A stretch of DNA of 33,851 bases from Calditrichia bacterium. GTDB taxonomy: Bacteria > Calditrichota > Calditrichia > RBG-13-44-9. The DNA lies in assembly GCA_027039625.1 (NCBI GenBank), contig JALWDQ010000633.1:1-33851 (forward strand). Direction: 5' to 3'. The translations under genes were made by a program, and so were the position numbers. Shown in pieces: positions 4,468 through 22,208 of this stretch (within the stretch, counting starts at the first letter, position 1; each line of letters begins with the position of its first letter). The notes under the pieces are model-generated. The model saw nothing but the letters and a program-made list of their open reading frames with translations. It was not told where the DNA came from and ran no database searches.

Positions 4468-4640
4468 AAATTCCAAATTACAAATCCCAAATAACAAAAG
4501 ACAAATTCCAAAATCCAAATTCCAAATGTCAAAAAAACCGAGGCGATCGCAACGAGCGCAGCGAAAGCTCAAATTCCGGATAACAAATTCCAAATCAAAA
4601 ACAACAAAAAAACGAACTCCACATCACAAATCCTAAATGG
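4468..4640 (+). repeat. degenerate heptanucleotide tandem array 1 (consensus AAATTCC)
   Basis: In-phase heptads aaattcc/aaattac/aaatccc/aaataac/aaaagac/aaattcc/aaaatcc/aaattcc/aaatgtc/aaaaaaa occupy 4468-4537. A 33-nt insert (4538-4570) interrupts the array, which resumes at 4571-4640. Confidence 0.85.
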
Positions 4641-4681
4641 TTTAACATATTCTTTTTTTCCTAATTCAATCATTATTTTCC

Positions 4682-4734
4682 ATTCGTCCTTATTCGTGTT
4701 ATTCGTGGTTAAGTGCTTTTTTGTGTGATTCGTG
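4682..4734 (+). repeat. ATTCGTG heptamer cluster 1 (iteron-like)
   Basis: attcgtc at 4682; attcgtg at 4692, 4701 and 4728. Spacing is 10, 9 and 27 nt. Confidence 0.85.
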
Positions 4735-4802
4735 GTTAATGATTACTGGGAGGCGGAGGAATTGAACAAGCCTTATTGCCTGGCTCTCTTGAGGTGAGCC
4801 AC

Positions 4803-4845
4803 ATTCTGTCATTCTGAGCGGAGCGTTAGCGGAGCGAAGAATCTC
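4803..4845 (+). repeat. short dispersed-repeat-like module (gtcattctgagcggagcg..ggagcgaagaatc)
   Basis: Internal direct repeat agcggagcg x2 (4817-4825 and 4829-4837). It resembles the 'cattctgagcgaagcgaagaatc' type of intergenic repeat that yields junk ORFs (..LRMTE..) in many environmental genomes. Confidence 0.5.
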
Positions 4846-4922
4846 TTCTACATTACATGGAATAATCTTTCTTCGTATCAAAATAATACAGCTTGAGATG
4901 GTACTCTAAAATTATCAATACG

Positions 4923-4978
4923 AAATTCTAAACTACAAATCCCAAATTTCCAATCCCAAACAACAAATTCCAAATTCC
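4923..4978 (+). repeat. degenerate heptanucleotide tandem array 2 (AAATTCC-like)
   Basis: Eight in-phase heptads: aaattct/aaactac/aaatccc/aaatttc/caatccc/aaacaac/aaattcc/aaattcc. Confidence 0.85.
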
Positions 4979-5025
4979 GATAATTTAATAGATTCTTTCC
5001 GAATCTAATATTTTCCTTATTATTA

Positions 5026-5092
5026 ATTCGTGCATATTCGTGTGATTCGTGGTTAATAATTCGTGGGTAAGTTTCCATCCGTACAATTCGTG
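5026..5092 (+). repeat. ATTCGTG heptamer cluster 2 (iteron-like)
   Basis: Exact attcgtg at 5026, 5036, 5045, 5059 and 5086. Spacing is 10, 9, 14 and 27 nt. Confidence 0.85.
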
Positions 5093-5165
5093 GTTTTATT
5101 GATTCCGGCGATCTCGATAATTTTAAAACCCAATTCAAAATTCTTAATTCAAATTTCAAAATTAT

Positions 5166-5248
5166 TTCTGTCGTCCTTACAGGACTTAAAATGATGGGTG
5201 GAATTCACCTTCCCATGGCTGAAGGCCATGGGCTAAATTCTGTCGTCC
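5166..5248 (+). repeat. hairpin-containing repeat module bounded by an 11-nt direct repeat
   Basis: ttctgtcgtcc occurs at 5166-5176 and 5238-5248. An 8-bp hairpin pairs cccatggc (5212-5219) with gccatggg (5225-5232). A small hairpin gtcct/aggac lies at 5173-5185. Confidence 0.6.
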
Positions 5249-5354
5249 ACTCCGTGAACTCATCCCCTGCCAGCCGATAGTTTTTAAATCCTAAGAATCT
5301 ATTCCGACCACCTGGAGTATCCGGTTAAAAAATATCTTTTCTAATTATTGAAAC

Positions 5355-5471
5355 AAATCCCAAACAACAAATCCCAAATCACAAACGAAATTCCAAACCC
5401 CAAATCCCAATTAACAAAAAACAAATTCCAAGTCTCAAATAACAAGCATCAAATTCCAAATTCCAAATGAT
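5355..5471 (+). repeat. degenerate heptanucleotide tandem array 3 (AAATTCC/AAATCCC)
   Basis: About 16 heptads, with one 5-nt irregular unit at 5383-5387. The array ends ...aaattcc/aaattcc/aaatgat. Confidence 0.85.
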
Positions 5472-5511
5472 TAAGAGAATTTTTACACAATCTAATCATT
5501 TCTTTTTTTTC

Positions 5512-5564
5512 ATTCGTGTTTATTCGTGTGATTCGTGGGCAAATATCAATTCTTTTAATTCGTG
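5512..5564 (+). repeat. ATTCGTG heptamer cluster 3 (iteron-like)
   Basis: Exact attcgtg at 5512, 5522, 5531 and 5558. Spacing is 10, 9 and 27 nt, identical to cluster 1. Confidence 0.85.
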
Positions 5565-5692
5565 GTTTGAATTTTTAGAAGCTTTTGTACTCGCAAAATC
5601 AGTAACCCTCCAGCATGGGGTTTCGGGAAGAAAGCACCAAAACCATATTGGTTTTTTTCGTATTGTTTTTAAAGGGTGAATTATTTATTTTT

Positions 5693-5729
5693 GCGTGGCA
5701 TCCGTAAAAGAATGCCGCTTTATTTTTTT
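5693..5729 (+). terminator. terminator-like hairpin plus T-run just upstream of gatC
   Basis: gcgtggcat (5693-5701) pairs with atgccgc (5712-5718) with one bulge, followed by tttattttttt. Confidence 0.4.
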
Positions 5730-5749
5730 CTGAAAAAATACTTAAGATC

Positions 5750-6036
5750 ATGAAAGTATCCTTGCAGGAAGTGGAGCATCTGGCGCACCTAGAGGCGCTG
5801 GAATTTACTCCGGAAGAGAAGCAAAAAATTGCCACTGAACTGGAACGCATTCTGGAATATGTGCGTCAGCTGGAAGAAGTGGATACCACCGGCGTTGAAC
5901 CGCTGGAGCATCCCGGTGGCCCGGTGCAGGCTATGCGCCCGGATGAACCTCAACCTTCTCTTCCAGTAGAAGAGGCATTACGCAATGCTCCCGATCGGCA
6001 AGGAGGTTTCTTTCGGGTTCCCAGGGTGATTCGTAA

Positions 6037-18266: not shown

Positions 18267-18773
18267 CGTGTACCTCCTTTCGTTAAAAACTCGCTAAATC
18301 TACCATCATTTCCTGCGAAATTCAAGGTGAAAACGTTTACCGGGTTGGGAAAAAGAGATAAAATAAGAGTGTATGGATATGGAAATGTGTAACTATAATA
18401 GAGAGTCTAAGGCTATCATGTTAGTTTTGTGTGAAATGTAACTTTTAATCCGTAACTTTACATTTCGGTGGTAGTGAATTAACGTTTGGAGGAAGATAAA
18501 AAAATTAAATAATAATTGATTTAGTTTAATATGCAATTATGTAAAATGAATGCACTTGATTTATATTAATTTTAAGATTATTATTTTAGAAAAGGTAACA
18601 AGAATTTATTTTAAATTGAAATTTAAAAAAGGTCTTGAATAATATAAATAAAATTAAAAACACTAAATAATTAACCTTTCCTTTCTAATAAAATATTTGA
18701 TTTGTTAATTTTAGCTTTAAACTTTTAAAAGGCAAATAATGGGAATTATCAAAACAAATAGAGAAAACTGCTC

Positions 18774-19520
18774 ATGAAAGAGAGAAAATATCGTAGACCA
18801 CCTATTGTGGAAGTAGTGTGTGAATTCCGATTTAAACATTCTTCCCCATGGGATGCTACAATTCCTGGACTTATCTATCATGAAGTAAAGAAAAAATTTA
18901 CCAGACGTCGTACTTTACGCAATGTGGGTATGCATGTTCAGGTTGAACATAAAGGTGTATTATTTCAGCCCCGGATGGAAGAAGGGACTCAATTTTTACA
19001 GGATGACGAACGGGCTTTTTTACAGTTACAACCGCGCCGTATTTCTGTTCATCATCTGGCACCCTATCCGCACTGGGAAGGATTTAAACCGTTGATCCAG
19101 TTAGCATATAAAGCATACTTAAAAGTTGTCCCTGATGCCACTATACAGCGGATTGGACTTCGTTATATTAATAAAATTAATTTCGATACACCAGAAGTTG
19201 ATTTATCAGCTTTTTTTAATTTTTATCCCTACGTGGGTAGAAAACTACCACAACGTTATACAGGATTTAATCTTCAATTGTTATTTCCCCATGAAGAAGG
19301 AAGAGACGCTCTTCAGATGCGTTTGAGCAACGCACCCCCAGAAAAAGAAAATGCAGCTTCCATTCTGTTAGACATTGATTATTTTCTAATAGATTCAAAG
19401 AATCTTTCTTCAGAAAGGGGATTGGAATGGGTGGAGAAAGCGCATGAAAACATATTGGCGGCATTCGAAGGGGCTATAACCGATAAATTACGACATCAAT
19501 TTGAGGAGGAGAAAGTATGA
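18774..19520 (+). CDS. TIGR04255-like uncharacterised protein
   Basis: The N-terminal signature YRRPPIVEVVCEFRF and the roughly 250-aa length match my recollection of the sporadically distributed TIGR04255 family. Low G+C. Confidence 0.55.
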   Translation: MKERKYRRPPIVEVVCEFRFKHSSPWDATIPGLIYHEVKKKFTRRRTLRNVGMHVQVEHKGVLFQPRMEEGTQFLQDDERAFLQLQPRRISVHHLAPYPHWEGFKPLIQLAYKAYLKVVPDATIQRIGLRYINKINFDTPEVDLSAFFNFYPYVGRKLPQRYTGFNLQLLFPHEEGRDALQMRLSNAPPEKENAASILLDIDYFLIDSKNLSSERGLEWVEKAHENILAAFEGAITDKLRHQFEEEKV

Positions 19521-19963
19521 CATTTGCCATACCTTCATCATTGGGTATTAAAAATATAGATCTAACATCTGGTTCTGGTAATCCACTCTGGGTTGATGAA
19601 GAAATAAATCAGTGGCAAAATAAAACAACTTCACAATTTGAACGTATTAGCATTTTGCCACAATTTTACAAAATTAATCAGCCAGGGGAAGTCTTTAGAT
19701 TTCTATATGACCATCCTGGTTTAATTGAAGTTGTGTTGGAAGCAGTGGAGATTTTACGAAATGTATTCGGACCGGATGCATCTCTGGAACTGGAATTGGT
19801 AACGGATCCAGAAGCGGATGAATCCGAGTTATTTGCCCTGGTAGAAGTCGATATGACTCCTGAAGTAGCCTTGCAAAAACTGGAGGAATTCGATCAAAAT
19901 TGGCTTCTGGATCGAGAAGAAATTACTAAGGGACTTTTTAATGTAGATGTGACGTTTCGATGA
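19517..19963 (+). CDS. hypothetical small protein with acidic C-terminal half (possible antitoxin or adaptor)
   Basis: ATGA overlap with the upstream stop codon. The acidic C-terminal half (LELELVTDPEADESELFALVEVDMTPEVALQKLEEFDQNW) looks like a small antitoxin-like protein. Confidence 0.5.
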   Translation: MTFAIPSSLGIKNIDLTSGSGNPLWVDEEINQWQNKTTSQFERISILPQFYKINQPGEVFRFLYDHPGLIEVVLEAVEILRNVFGPDASLELELVTDPEADESELFALVEVDMTPEVALQKLEEFDQNWLLDREEITKGLFNVDVTFR

Positions 19964-20334
19964 GATTTCAATGGGAAACATTCATTAATCTTGCTGAAAG
20001 GCTACATCAGGAAAGTGAATCCTTTGTGGAAACAGAAGCCTATCAGCGCTCGGCAATTAGCAGAGCCTATTACGGTGCATTTGGATTGGCACGCGAAATT
20101 GCAGTACGTGAAGGTCTTTCTTTAACTTTTACGGGGGAAGACCATAAAAATGTGGAACAGCATTTCCGGGGAAATTCACAAAAATTTCGTAAACAGATAG
20201 GAATAGAGCTGAATCGTTTAAGACGACTTCGGAATAAAGCAGATTCTGCGGAATCAATCTCGGGTTTGCCGAAGGAAACGCGAAAGGCTTTGGTGCAAGC
20301 ACGAAATATTGAATCTAATTTAAAAAAGTTGTAA
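19960..20334 (+). CDS. HEPN-like four-helix protein
   Basis: ATGA overlap with the upstream stop codon. RSAISRAYYGAFGLAREIA resembles classical HEPN helix 1. LRRLRNKADS resembles the HEPN R-x(4-6)-H region, but the His is missing. Confidence 0.5.
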   Translation: MRFQWETFINLAERLHQESESFVETEAYQRSAISRAYYGAFGLAREIAVREGLSLTFTGEDHKNVEQHFRGNSQKFRKQIGIELNRLRRLRNKADSAESISGLPKETRKALVQARNIESNLKKL

Positions 20335-20415: not shown

Positions 20416-21543
20416 ATGCCAGAATATTTTATGTTAGAGCGGATTTTACTGCAAGGGTATAAATCAATTCATGAAGCAGATATTGAGCTTCGCCCTATTA
20501 ATGTGCTGATTGGAGCAAATGGTTCTGGCAAATCCAATTTTATTAGTTTATTTAAGTTTATGAACCGTTTAGTCAATCAGGATTTGCAGAAATATGTATT
20601 ACAATCGGGTGGAGCTGACCAGTTCCTTCACTATGGACGAAAGAAAACTGAGCGACTTCATATTGAACTCTGGTTTAGTAAAAATAATAAATTGGCAAAT
20701 GGTTATGAATGTTCATTAATACCTACGTCAAAAGATTTATTAGCATTCGAAAAGGAAGTAATTTATATTCACAACCGTGAAAAATATAAAAAACCTTACA
20801 TTATTGAAAAAACATTTCGTGTTCATGAAGAAACAATTATACCTAAATGGAAACAAAAACGTGTCCGTGTGTCGAAATATATCATGAAGGCTCTTCAATC
20901 GTGTAAATTGTATCATTTCCACGATACCAGTGATTCAGCCAGAGTTAAACAAACAGGCGATATTCACGACAATCTTTTCCTAAGACCAGATGCCTCGAAT
21001 CTTGCCGCATATTTATTTCTGCTTAAAAAAACGAAACCAGACTATTATCACAATATTGTAGAAACCATTCGTCTGGCTGCACCTTTCTTTGGGGATTTTA
21101 TTCTTCGTCCCTCACCTTTTAATCCTGATAAAATACGTCTGGAATGGAAAGAGAAAGGTTCAGATGTTCTTTTTGGCCCCAATTCACTTTCGGATGGAAC
21201 GCTTCGTTTTATCTGCCTCACCACTCTTTTTATGCAACCACCCGAAAAGTTGCCATCAACTATTGTACTGGATGAGCCTGAACTTGGGTTACATCCCTAT
21301 GCCATAGCTCTTCTGGCAGATATGGTTCGGAGTGTTGCCAAACATACGCAGGTTATCCTGGCAACCCAGTCGGTAACTCTTGTAAATCAATTCCTCCCGG
21401 AAGACATTCTGGTTGTTGACCGAATTGAGGGGAAAACCATCTTCCGACGTTTAACAGAAAAAGAGATGGCTTCCTGGCTTGAAGACTATGGTCTGGGAGA
21501 TTTATGGGAGAAAAATTTGCTGGGGGGACGTCCTGCGTTATGA
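20416..21543 (+). CDS. ABC/SMC-type ATPase (AAA_21/AAA_15-like, OLD/AbiL/PARIS-type ATPase)
   Basis: Walker A GANGSGKSN, ABC signature LSDGTLRF, Walker B IVLDEPELGLHP, switch region ILATQS. An alternative ATG lies at 20431. Confidence 0.85.
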   Translation: MPEYFMLERILLQGYKSIHEADIELRPINVLIGANGSGKSNFISLFKFMNRLVNQDLQKYVLQSGGADQFLHYGRKKTERLHIELWFSKNNKLANGYECSLIPTSKDLLAFEKEVIYIHNREKYKKPYIIEKTFRVHEETIIPKWKQKRVRVSKYIMKALQSCKLYHFHDTSDSARVKQTGDIHDNLFLRPDASNLAAYLFLLKKTKPDYYHNIVETIRLAAPFFGDFILRPSPFNPDKIRLEWKEKGSDVLFGPNSLSDGTLRFICLTTLFMQPPEKLPSTIVLDEPELGLHPYAIALLADMVRSVAKHTQVILATQSVTLVNQFLPEDILVVDRIEGKTIFRRLTEKEMASWLEDYGLGDLWEKNLLGGRPAL

Positions 21544-22208
21544 CAAAAGTGCTTATTTATGTAGAGGGACAAACGGAAGAAACTTTTGTTCGTGATTTAT
21601 TAGCGCCGTATTTCAAACAAAAATGCAGTATTTATTTAATCCCTTCGTTAGCAAGAACAAAACGAACCAGAGCCGGACGAGCGTTTAAAGGTGGGATTGT
21701 TTCATACGGTAAAGTTAAAAAAGATATTTTGAAGTTATTGGGTGACAGGAGTGCTGCATTAGTTACCACTATGTTAGATTTTTATGGTCTCCCCAATGAT
21801 TTCCCTGGAAAGAAATCCCTCTCCTCAGGTTCCCCAACTGATCGTGTTCAACATTTAGAAAAGGCATTTGGGGAGGACATAGCCAGTACTCGTTTTCTCC
21901 CTTTCCTTGTTTTGCATGAATTTGAAACATTTATCTTTGTGCAGCCTGAAAAACTCGCCGAAGCATTGCCCGGATATCTGACGGAAGTTCAAAATTTAAT
22001 TAAAAATGTTGGTCACTTAACTCCTGAAGAAATCAATGAAGGCAGGGACACCCATCCATCAGCACGAATTCTGAAACTATTTCCTACTTATCAAAAAAGA
22101 TTGCACGGACCGCTTATTATCAAAAAAATTGGTCTGAATTTGGTCAGGAGCAAATGCCCTCATTTTAATAACTGGTTCTCTAATTTAGAAAAATTATGCC
22201 CTGGTTAA
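21541..22208 (+). CDS. DUF4276 family protein (TOPRIM-like)
   Basis: The ATG at 21541 overlaps the ATPase stop codon (ATGA). N-terminal IYVEGQTEETF, central LHEFETFIF and C-terminal HPSARIL...CPHFNNW match my recollection of DUF4276. Confidence 0.65.

Follow-up and report, generated by a model that had tools for sequence, protein, structure and literature searches.

A candidate three-gene toxin-antitoxin-like module in which a TIGR04255 gene precedes an acidic-protein gene and a HEPN gene

We analyzed a 33,851-nucleotide stretch of DNA from a Calditrichia bacterium (GenBank assembly GCA_027039625.1, contig JALWDQ010000633.1, positions 1 to 33,851 of the forward strand; hereafter, the window), focusing on three consecutive open reading frames (ORFs) that encode a TIGR04255 family protein, a small acidic protein and a HEPN domain protein. 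A first-pass annotation, made from the sequence alone, had reported that these three ORFs are chained by 4-nt ATGA overlaps, and both the ORF list and the sequence confirmed this arrangement. The peptide signatures that it had singled out were also present, PPIVEVVCEFRF in ORF1 and both SAISRAYYGAFGLAR and RNKAD in ORF3. The features of the trio are as follows.

18267-18773, + strand: AT-rich intergenic region of about 500 bp (GC 0.26-0.27) with promoter-like hexamers; probable promoter region
18774-19520, + strand: ORF1, 248 amino acids (aa); TIGR04255 family protein, with a predicted double beta-alpha-beta4-alpha repeat, like that of the TATA-box-binding protein (TBP)
19503-19509, + strand: Shine-Dalgarno-like GGAGGAG lying within the ORF1 3' end and preceding the ORF2 start by 7 nt, read from the sequence
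19517-19520, + strand: ATGA overlap of the ORF2 start and the ORF1 stop (gtATGAca), read from the sequence and the ORF list
19517-19963, + strand: ORF2, 148 aa; acidic, antitoxin-like partner of the HEPN protein
19960-19963, + strand: ATGA overlap of the ORF3 start and the ORF2 stop (cgATGAga), read from the sequence and the ORF list
19960-20334, + strand: ORF3, 124 aa; basic HEPN domain protein of the PF05168/UPF0332 class

Inspection of the sequence revealed no Shine-Dalgarno-like run ahead of the ORF3 start. Because ORF3 has no such site of its own, its translation probably depends on coupling. No terminator was predicted inside the trio. Upstream of the operon, promoter-like hexamers, which are consensus matches only, were found at 18616-18645 and 18556-18584. 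The trio lies in a stretch with a GC content of 0.33-0.43, against 0.45-0.51 in the flanking genes for a pyrophosphate-dependent phosphofructokinase and a nucleotidyl-transferase, and the whole stretch from 18.3 to 22.3 kb is lower in GC than its housekeeping flanks. By composition, the region looks like a horizontally acquired islet. Flanking direct or inverted repeats, tRNA genes, Rfam elements and integrase genes, which can mark island boundaries, were not found at the borders of the low-GC stretch, and there were no tRNA or Rfam matches across the window.

The conservation of the trio was examined by scanning GTDB, one genome per species, with a TIGR04255 alignment. At least 482 relatives were found, and the best 80 loci, with proteins 37-81% identical to ORF1, were read. 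The taxa represented include Chloroflexota, Nitrospirota, Acidobacteriota, Bipolaricaulota, Verrucomicrobiota, Planctomycetota, Spirochaetota and Thermodesulfobacteriota, as well as Methanothrix and other archaea. Downstream genes were called with hidden Markov models built from alignments of the three proteins, and 71 loci, each from a different GTDB species, had at least 1 kb of downstream DNA. The arrangement of the window, TIGR04255 followed by an ORF2-like gene and a HEPN gene on the same strand and in the same order, was found in 64 of these 71 loci. TIGR04255 was followed by HEPN with a divergent or lost middle gene in 2 loci, and by an unrelated protein of about 119 aa and then a PIN/VapC-like protein in 5 loci; no locus (0/71) had neither HEPN nor PIN downstream. 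The survey of TIGR04255 neighbourhoods that the first-pass annotation had proposed thus found the trio co-located in most informative loci and in many phyla.

The junctions are conserved as well. In 61 of 70 distinct loci, the TIGR04255 stop is separated from the start of the middle gene by -4 to +5 nt, most of the others being over-extended start calls, and this tight arrangement is therefore far beyond chance. A -4 junction was also the commonest between the ORF2-like and HEPN genes in related loci. Across 77 distinct trios, the three proteins co-diverge, their pairwise distances showing a strong correlation (Mantel r 0.72-0.75, p 0.001). In evolution, the three genes form a genuine unit. 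One instance, from a cultured organism, lies on the Thermus brockianus plasmid pTB1, where TIGR04255 and a divergent 148-aa protein are accompanied by a HEPN gene that is absent from the plasmid table; the HEPN homologue scored 27.2 against PF05168 (cutoff, 22), and the trio adjoins VapBC, DNA methylase and cas6 genes.

To set the trio against its parts, metagenome contigs were scanned with a narrower alignment of the ORF2 domain. A HEPN gene followed the ORF2-like gene in 51 of 54 loci. Among the 28 loci with enough upstream DNA, TIGR04255 stood ahead of the ORF2-like gene in only 8 and was missing from 20. Because HEPN follows almost always and TIGR04255 precedes in only these few, the ORF2-HEPN pair is a free-standing core to which TIGR04255 is an add-on. 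In the surveyed subfamily, TIGR04255 was never found without a downstream pair. A fusion was found in locus L007 (1233-1975), where the middle protein starts with MQERKYRNPPIVKV, the N terminus of TIGR04255, joined to the ORF2 domain; the same fusion is shared by L007 to L009 (GCA_054032715.1 and relatives). Judging from its sequence, it is a deletion derivative of a trio: an in-frame loss took away nearly the whole of TIGR04255 together with the middle protein's tail, and the pair was kept. Tandem ORF2-like and HEPN pairs without TIGR04255, some of them with a truncated HEPN, were seen in three metagenome contigs (L135, L136 and L141; e.g., L135 3185-4626). A different trio with 4-nt overlaps occurs at L012 6800-8387, where a 217-aa first gene precedes an ORF2-like gene (184 aa) and a HEPN gene; genes for SocA/Panacea, a resolvase and an MmeI-family enzyme are its neighbours. 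The 217-aa protein was rejected as a TIGR04255 homologue, as it shows no similarity (hhalign probability 0.1).

ORF1 matched the NCBIfam model TIGR04255 over its full length (model positions 1-252 of 252) with 139.7 bits (cutoff, 30; E 1.4e-40), as the first-pass annotation had recognized from the N terminus. A homologue search with ORF1 found 466 proteins, many labelled TIGR04255 by their source, and there was no match in Pfam or PADLOC and none meaningful in PHROGs. An AlphaFold2 model built with 57 homologues (pLDDT 94.3, pTM 0.89) displayed the strand and helix order E-H-E-E-E-E-H twice. When it was compared with the PDB by Foldseek, TATA-box-binding proteins came out on top (probability 0.99), with a poor superposition (template-modelling [TM] score 0.30-0.41, root-mean-square deviation about 10 Å, E about 3e-3). 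A search of all PDB chain sequences with the ORF1 profile found nothing, and sequence similarity between the two halves of ORF1 was undetectable (hhalign probability 0.4). Given the repeated topology and the TBP top match, together with the poor superposition and the lack of a PDB sequence match, we therefore describe the predicted fold as a double repeat of TBP-like type that lacks a close relative of known structure. In the viral structure library BFVD, the best match was an unnamed 202-aa protein (E 2.6e-7, TM 0.5-0.6), followed by TBPs of giant viruses and RNA 5'-triphosphatases with low TM scores. The family alignment contains about 20 invariant residues. Those that are charged or polar, many of them on strands, include E13, E17, R130, N133, D200, H224, E232 and R240, and R126 and D202 are near-invariant. 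TIGR04255 is also the most conserved member of the trio, with a mean distance of 0.54 versus 0.62 and 0.71 for the other two proteins.

ORF3 on its own matched only HEPN_AbiV in Pfam, below the cutoff (E 0.058). At the family level, PF05168 was matched by 18 of 31 aligned members (E <= 0.01), and homologues at 36-43% identity carry PF05168 or "UPF0332" labels. The family profile matched the solved HEPN proteins 9xbd (E 1.2e-8) and 9xbc (E 1.1e-7), as well as AF0298 (2hsb, UPF0332; E 0.025), and ORF3 matched the PADLOC model HEPN_IX (E 4.5e-5) and phrog_5176 (E 2e-12). The HEPN-like nature proposed in the first-pass annotation therefore holds for the family. Five residues, R30, R35, H62, R91 and D95, are invariant across the 77 distinct trios, H62 being found in 77/77. 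Where HEPN proteins canonically have the catalytic Rx4-6H motif, at the end of helix 3, the sequence here reads R88-x2-R91-N-x-A-D95-Y96, with Asp for His. A PF05168 class with Asp in place of this His and a His conserved elsewhere was described by Anantharaman et al. (PMC3710099), and such a HEPN group was named "class II," with a conserved Tyr, by Yao et al. (PMC7641770); in HEPN/MNT pairs, adenylylation is presumed to occur at this Tyr (PMC7641770). Tyr96 is present in 75 of the 77 trios and is equally conserved in pairs without TIGR04255 (10/11). The ORF3 of the window is the only one with Ser at this position: its codons 96 and 97 (20245-20250) encode Ser-Ala instead of the Tyr-Asp of the family, and the Tyr-to-Ser replacement at codon 96 corresponds to a one-base change, TAT to TCT. 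By this change, the window copy may escape whatever acts on that Tyr.

ORF2 has a calculated isoelectric point (pI) of 4.12. Its C-terminal half had been noted as strongly acidic, and residues 51-148 indeed contain 23 D+E versus 7 K+R. No family was found for ORF2 in Pfam, NCBIfam, PADLOC or PHROGs. An exhaustive profile search nonetheless showed that its C-terminal domain of about 100 aa is widespread, as 2073 representative clusters contain it at E <= 1e-3. Pfam domains over this region were absent from all of 40 diverse members, and one of them carried a C-terminal XRE-type helix-turn-helix (HTH) domain, the kind of fusion seen in classical antitoxins. The AlphaFold2 model (pLDDT 88 overall and above 96 in the C-terminal domain) consists of an N-terminal tail modelled with low confidence (residues 1 to about 40), which contains W33-QNKTTSQF, and a confident alpha-beta-beta-alpha-alpha-beta domain (about 50-148). 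Foldseek gave no significant structural neighbour in the PDB, the best matches being OsmC/Ohr, KH-type (KH-II) and CzrB C-terminal domains (E >= 6.6e-3), and a search of PDB chain sequences with the ORF2 profile gave nothing meaningful.

The first-pass annotation had likened ORF2 and ORF3 to a type II or type VII toxin-antitoxin (TA) pair. The type II part fits: a small acidic gene overlaps a downstream basic gene, and the two are conserved as a pair. The median pI is 4.5 for the ORF2 family and 9.3 for the HEPN family (4.1 and 9.9 for the window copies), a contrast in charge typical of an antitoxin and its toxin. The type VII part is not supported. ORF2 was rejected as a minimal nucleotidyltransferase (MNT), the usual partner of PF05168 HEPNs, even as a degenerate one, since neither ORF2 nor its 40 relatives matched a nucleotidyltransferase (NTase) family, and ORF2 has neither an NTase fold nor the GSX10DXD motif. 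The trio resembles the class II HEPN/MNT systems (HepT/MntA; PF05168 plus PF01909) in that a small PF05168-class HEPN gene lies downstream of its partner gene and overlaps it, and in that the HEPN protein has an R..RNxADY-type motif, in which the Tyr is conserved and Asp takes the place of the canonical His. It differs in having a third gene, TIGR04255, and in the nature of the upstream partner. As ORF2 is not a nucleotidyltransferase, neutralization by type VII adenylylation is not expected.

The N-terminal tail of ORF2 was kept by all 54 of the TIGR04255-linked homologues (total length, at least 134 aa). A motif in this tail, [FWY]x3[GT]xSx[VIF], which takes the form WQNKTTSQF in the window, was found in 16 of the 54 TIGR04255-linked homologues and in 0 of 26 TIGR04255-less ones (mean in shuffled sequences, 0.24). 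A similar string, FxxxGSTVV, is present in the unrelated middle proteins of the PIN-type loci. As a sign of contact between ORF1 and the ORF2 tail, this motif is suggestive only. The length of the N-terminal extension was discarded as a marker of TIGR04255 linkage (P = 0.62, not significant).

The five PIN-variant loci (L046, L057, L067, L076 and L092; e.g., L046 5980-7495) have overlapping junctions. They resemble VapBC systems, with a small protein followed by a PIN/VapC-like toxin; they differ in that the middle protein of about 119 aa belongs to no known family, including the known VapB families, and the variant is absent from the window. A relationship of this middle protein to ORF2 was considered and dropped, as no homology was found. 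The PIN gene of L076 looks disrupted. Distant relatives of TIGR04255 (21-29% identity) precede yet other two-gene cassettes. On a Methylocystis plasmid, such a relative is followed by genes for 70 aa and 192 aa proteins, beside an AbiJ-like gene. In the P2-like Ralstonia phage YO139_2 (ON170239.1; L095 194-2061), whose record is unannotated, a TIGR04255 homologue is followed by a 165-aa gene, with an ATGA overlap, and a 146-aa gene; neither product belongs to a known family. The third genes of the Methylocystis and Ralstonia phage cassettes were ruled out as HEPN genes and had no family match. In IMG/VR prophage contigs (L182, L183 and L185; e.g., L183 4896-6944), a distant TIGR04255 gene is followed by genes for proteins of about 173 and 225 aa. 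The latter contains a CxxC...DH motif and a weak HNH match (20.8 bits; cutoff, 21.4). The L183 cassette adjoins an integrase gene at the contig end. The position of TIGR04255 ahead of unrelated cassettes is consistent with a conserved module able to combine with nuclease pairs of different kinds.

With moderate confidence, we lean towards reading the trio as one translationally coupled, horizontally mobile, tripartite TA or abortive-infection-like module. ORF3 would be the effector, most likely a ribonuclease (RNase) acting through the R30/R35/H62/R91/D95 cluster. ORF2 would be a dedicated, nonenzymatic and acidic inhibitor that blocks the HEPN protein stoichiometrically, as in type II systems, at the place held by MNT in HEPN-MNT pairs. 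ORF1 would be an add-on third subunit, made first and in a fixed ratio. It would most likely bind the flexible N-terminal tail of ORF2 and, as a sensing or regulatory component, control the release of the nuclease by the inhibitor. We infer the toxicity, its neutralization, the RNase activity, the contact between ORF1 and ORF2, and any role of the trio in phage defence. A similar layout is known from the toxin-antitoxin-chaperone (TAC), omega-epsilon-zeta and paaR-paaA-parE systems, three-gene operons in which a third protein controls a TA pair. In TAC, the binding site of this third protein is reported to be an unstructured extension that the antitoxin carries (PMC9098466). The extension is N-terminal in the trio and C-terminal in TAC, the gene order differs, and the third protein of the trio is neither SecB-like nor a regulator of the HTH or ribbon-helix-helix (RHH) type; for SecB, ORF1 had no Pfam match and there was none among its structural matches.

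Several observations weigh against the reading of the trio as a tripartite TA or abortive-infection-like module. ORF3 by itself falls under Pfam's HEPN threshold, and its canonical Rx4-6H His is replaced by Asp, although this is described for the PF05168 class (PMC3710099); its RNase activity is therefore an assumption. Because of Ser at the near-invariant Tyr96 position, the window copy of ORF3 may be attenuated. The fold assignment of TIGR04255 is weak (TM 0.3-0.4 to TBP). The tail motif occurs in only about one-third of the TIGR04255-linked ORF2 proteins and was defined after inspection of the data, and the overall length of the ORF2 homologues does not differ significantly between TIGR04255-linked and free pairs. 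Finally, only about 13% of 38 other loci have a methylase or ResIII gene among their four nearest genes. The neighbours of the trio are mostly ordinary, and a defence role is therefore not established over that of a plain addiction module.

A wider proposal, which we put forward tentatively and regard as rather doubtful, is that TIGR04255 is the conserved sensor (or enzyme) of a hitherto unrecognized, widespread family of modular three-gene immune systems. A TBP-like front end would act through lineage-specific adaptors or inhibitors on interchangeable nucleases, namely, HEPN, PIN, possibly HNH-like and other effectors, and plasmids, prophages and restriction-modification or BREX-like loci would be the carriers.

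The main competing explanation is that the trio is a split RnlA-like nuclease, in which ORF1 binds RNA or RNA-DNA hybrids and presents them to the HEPN or PIN protein, with ORF2 in the role of RnlB. In the literature, the nearest analogue in mechanism is RnlA-RnlB, an antiphage TA system like LsoA-LsoB, where two TBP-like domains occur together with a HEPN RNase whose HEPN domain is bound by a small inhibitor protein (PMC8266594). RnlA has the order TBP1-TBP2-HEPN; TBP1 is needed to bind the substrate, and RnlB blocks the HEPN dimer, the only part to which it binds (PMC8266594). Fusions of TBP-like and HEPN domains were noted earlier (PMC3710099). The TBP order beta-alpha-beta4-alpha, found twice in the ORF1 model, and the TBPs at the top of the Foldseek matches (probability 0.99) agree with this explanation, and a substrate-binding subunit could serve HEPN and PIN RNases alike. 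We nevertheless judge it unlikely. The TM score to TBP is only 0.30-0.41, RnlA and LsoA are outside the top 50 Foldseek matches of ORF1, its profile found nothing among PDB sequences, and the trio has no sequence similarity to RnlA and a different HEPN subclass. In RnlA and LsoA, the TBP-like domains are fused to HEPN and the antitoxin gene lies downstream, whereas the trio has separate genes for the TBP-like protein, the inhibitor and HEPN. A median pI of 5.4 for TIGR04255 is unlike that of a general nucleic acid binder, most ORF2-HEPN pairs lack TIGR04255, and the weak HNH-like partners, if real, probably act on DNA.

Alternatively, TIGR04255 may be an enzyme that modifies ORF2 or HEPN covalently, in a type VII-like manner without MNT, or that makes or destroys a nucleotide signal controlling the nuclease. 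The unusually many invariant polar residues on its beta-strands, its place as the most conserved of the three proteins and the recurrence of triphosphate-tunnel enzymes (RNA 5'-triphosphatases, YgiF) among its weak structural matches are in line with catalysis. Possible targets can be named as well, the Tyr kept by PF05168-class HEPNs, presumed to be adenylylated in HEPN/MNT pairs (PMC7641770), and an invariant Ser/Thr-rich motif in the ORF2 tail. However, the tunnel-enzyme matches have probabilities of 0.1-0.9 and TM scores below 0.2, and no known catalytic motif was identified in TIGR04255. Tyr96 is no less conserved where TIGR04255 is missing, as given above, and TIGR04255 is also coupled to PIN and weak HNH-like partners without such a Tyr site. 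All in all, an enzymatic role seems distinctly improbable.

As the first gene of the operon and with a TBP-like topology, TIGR04255 could also be only the transcriptional autoregulator of the operon, like omega or PaaR, binding DNA through its TBP-like saddle. Three-gene TA systems with a separate regulator exist (omega-epsilon-zeta and paaR-paaA-parE), and they provide a precedent. We consider this role very unlikely, because Pfam and NCBIfam searches with ORF1 revealed no HTH, RHH or other DNA-binding motif known from bacteria, the family median pI is acidic, no conserved palindrome was seen upstream of the trio in the window, TIGR04255 co-diverges with its partner proteins, and the conservation of about 20 invariant residues in 248 aa exceeds what operators could show across phyla.

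Two further genes lie immediately downstream of the trio and overlap each other by 40 nt.

20416-21543, + strand: ABC/AAA_21 ATPase (also AAA_15/SMC_N) by Pfam; PADLOC HEC-01A, E 2.3e-149
21504-22208, + strand: DUF4276/TOPRIM-like protein, Pfam DUF4276; PADLOC HEC-01B, E 4.6e-77

HEC-01, an ABC ATPase with a TOPRIM protein, is a two-gene candidate that gave no protection in published tests (bioRxiv 10.1101/2024.01.29.577857). It is matched by these two genes (20416-22208) and not by the trio itself. With PADLOC v2.0.0, no model matched ORF1 or ORF2, and ORF3 matched only the generic HEPN_IX. In close relatives (67-80% identity), the ATPase and DUF4276 pair again follows the trio. In relatives farther away (HEPN 45% identical), the trio, with the same 4-nt overlaps, stands between an MmeI-like methylase gene and other genes, and the ATPase pair is missing. 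Because the pair is absent beside the trio in most other loci, the ATPase and DUF4276 genes are a module separate from the trio. That all five genes form a single system is scarcely credible: the same block does occur in the window and in L001 to L004, L005 and L013, with no terminator predicted in the 81-nt gap, but all of them are closely related (at least 67% identity), the trio lacks the ATPase pair in L010, L011 and most other loci (AAA_21 makes up 4 of 122 nearest neighbours), HEC-01 is defined alone as a two-gene candidate, and the gap between the trio and the ATPase gene contains promoter-like sites. The ATPase of the window also weakly matches MADS Mad3. In a Calditrichaeota metagenome-assembled genome (RFHE01000273.1; L005 and L014, L005 5518-8752), two tandem trios are followed by the HEC-01 pair; in the first, the middle gene was called truncated (90 aa) and the HEPN ORF was uncalled, and in the second, both TIGR04255 (216 aa) and HEPN (102 aa) are shortened.

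The first-pass annotation had regarded the coupling of TIGR04255 to a small-protein/HEPN pair as not described, and no description was found in the searchable literature or in PADLOC: a literature search found "TIGR04255" in no paper and returned no relevant three-gene HEPN system. Systems of this kind are known, namely, TA or abortive-infection modules whose effector is a HEPN or PIN protein. As far as could be searched, the TIGR04255 front gene, the non-MNT partner family of PF05168 and the swapping of effectors are apparently new. TIGR04255, until now "sporadically distributed, function unknown," thereby gains a context as the first gene of a small-protein and nuclease cassette. PF05168 HEPNs have a widespread non-MNT partner family with more than 2000 representative clusters and no Pfam entry, and the picture that a HEPN needs an MNT is therefore incomplete. 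If TIGR04255 is the trigger sensor, one conserved sensor would drive swapped nuclease effectors, a new form of TA-nuclease control, and the trio would be a compact three-gene addition to the antiphage repertoire.

An enrichment of the trio in defence islands was only partly borne out. Among the 122 nearest neighbours in the 38 other loci, N6_N4 methylases (5), ResIII (5) and AAA_21 (4) were the most frequent families, and the rest were ordinary and diverse. Neighbours of the trio elsewhere include MmeI-like or PglX-like methylases, VapBC, Cas6 and AbiJ. The trio thus resembles a mobile cassette of the TA type, located in defence loci in some cases but not in all. In two lineages, L001 (3-2552 and 6079-10160) and L010 (3452-6769 and 8592-12783), the trio lies between a large MmeI/PglX-like methyltransferase and a conserved block, which encodes two proteins of about 370 and 570 aa and, at about 425 aa, an N6_N4 methylase; from this gene order, it is apparently nested in a larger methylase-based system. 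Elsewhere in the window, a stretch of about 1.4 kb (4594-6036) is free of ORFs of at least 110 aa on both strands.

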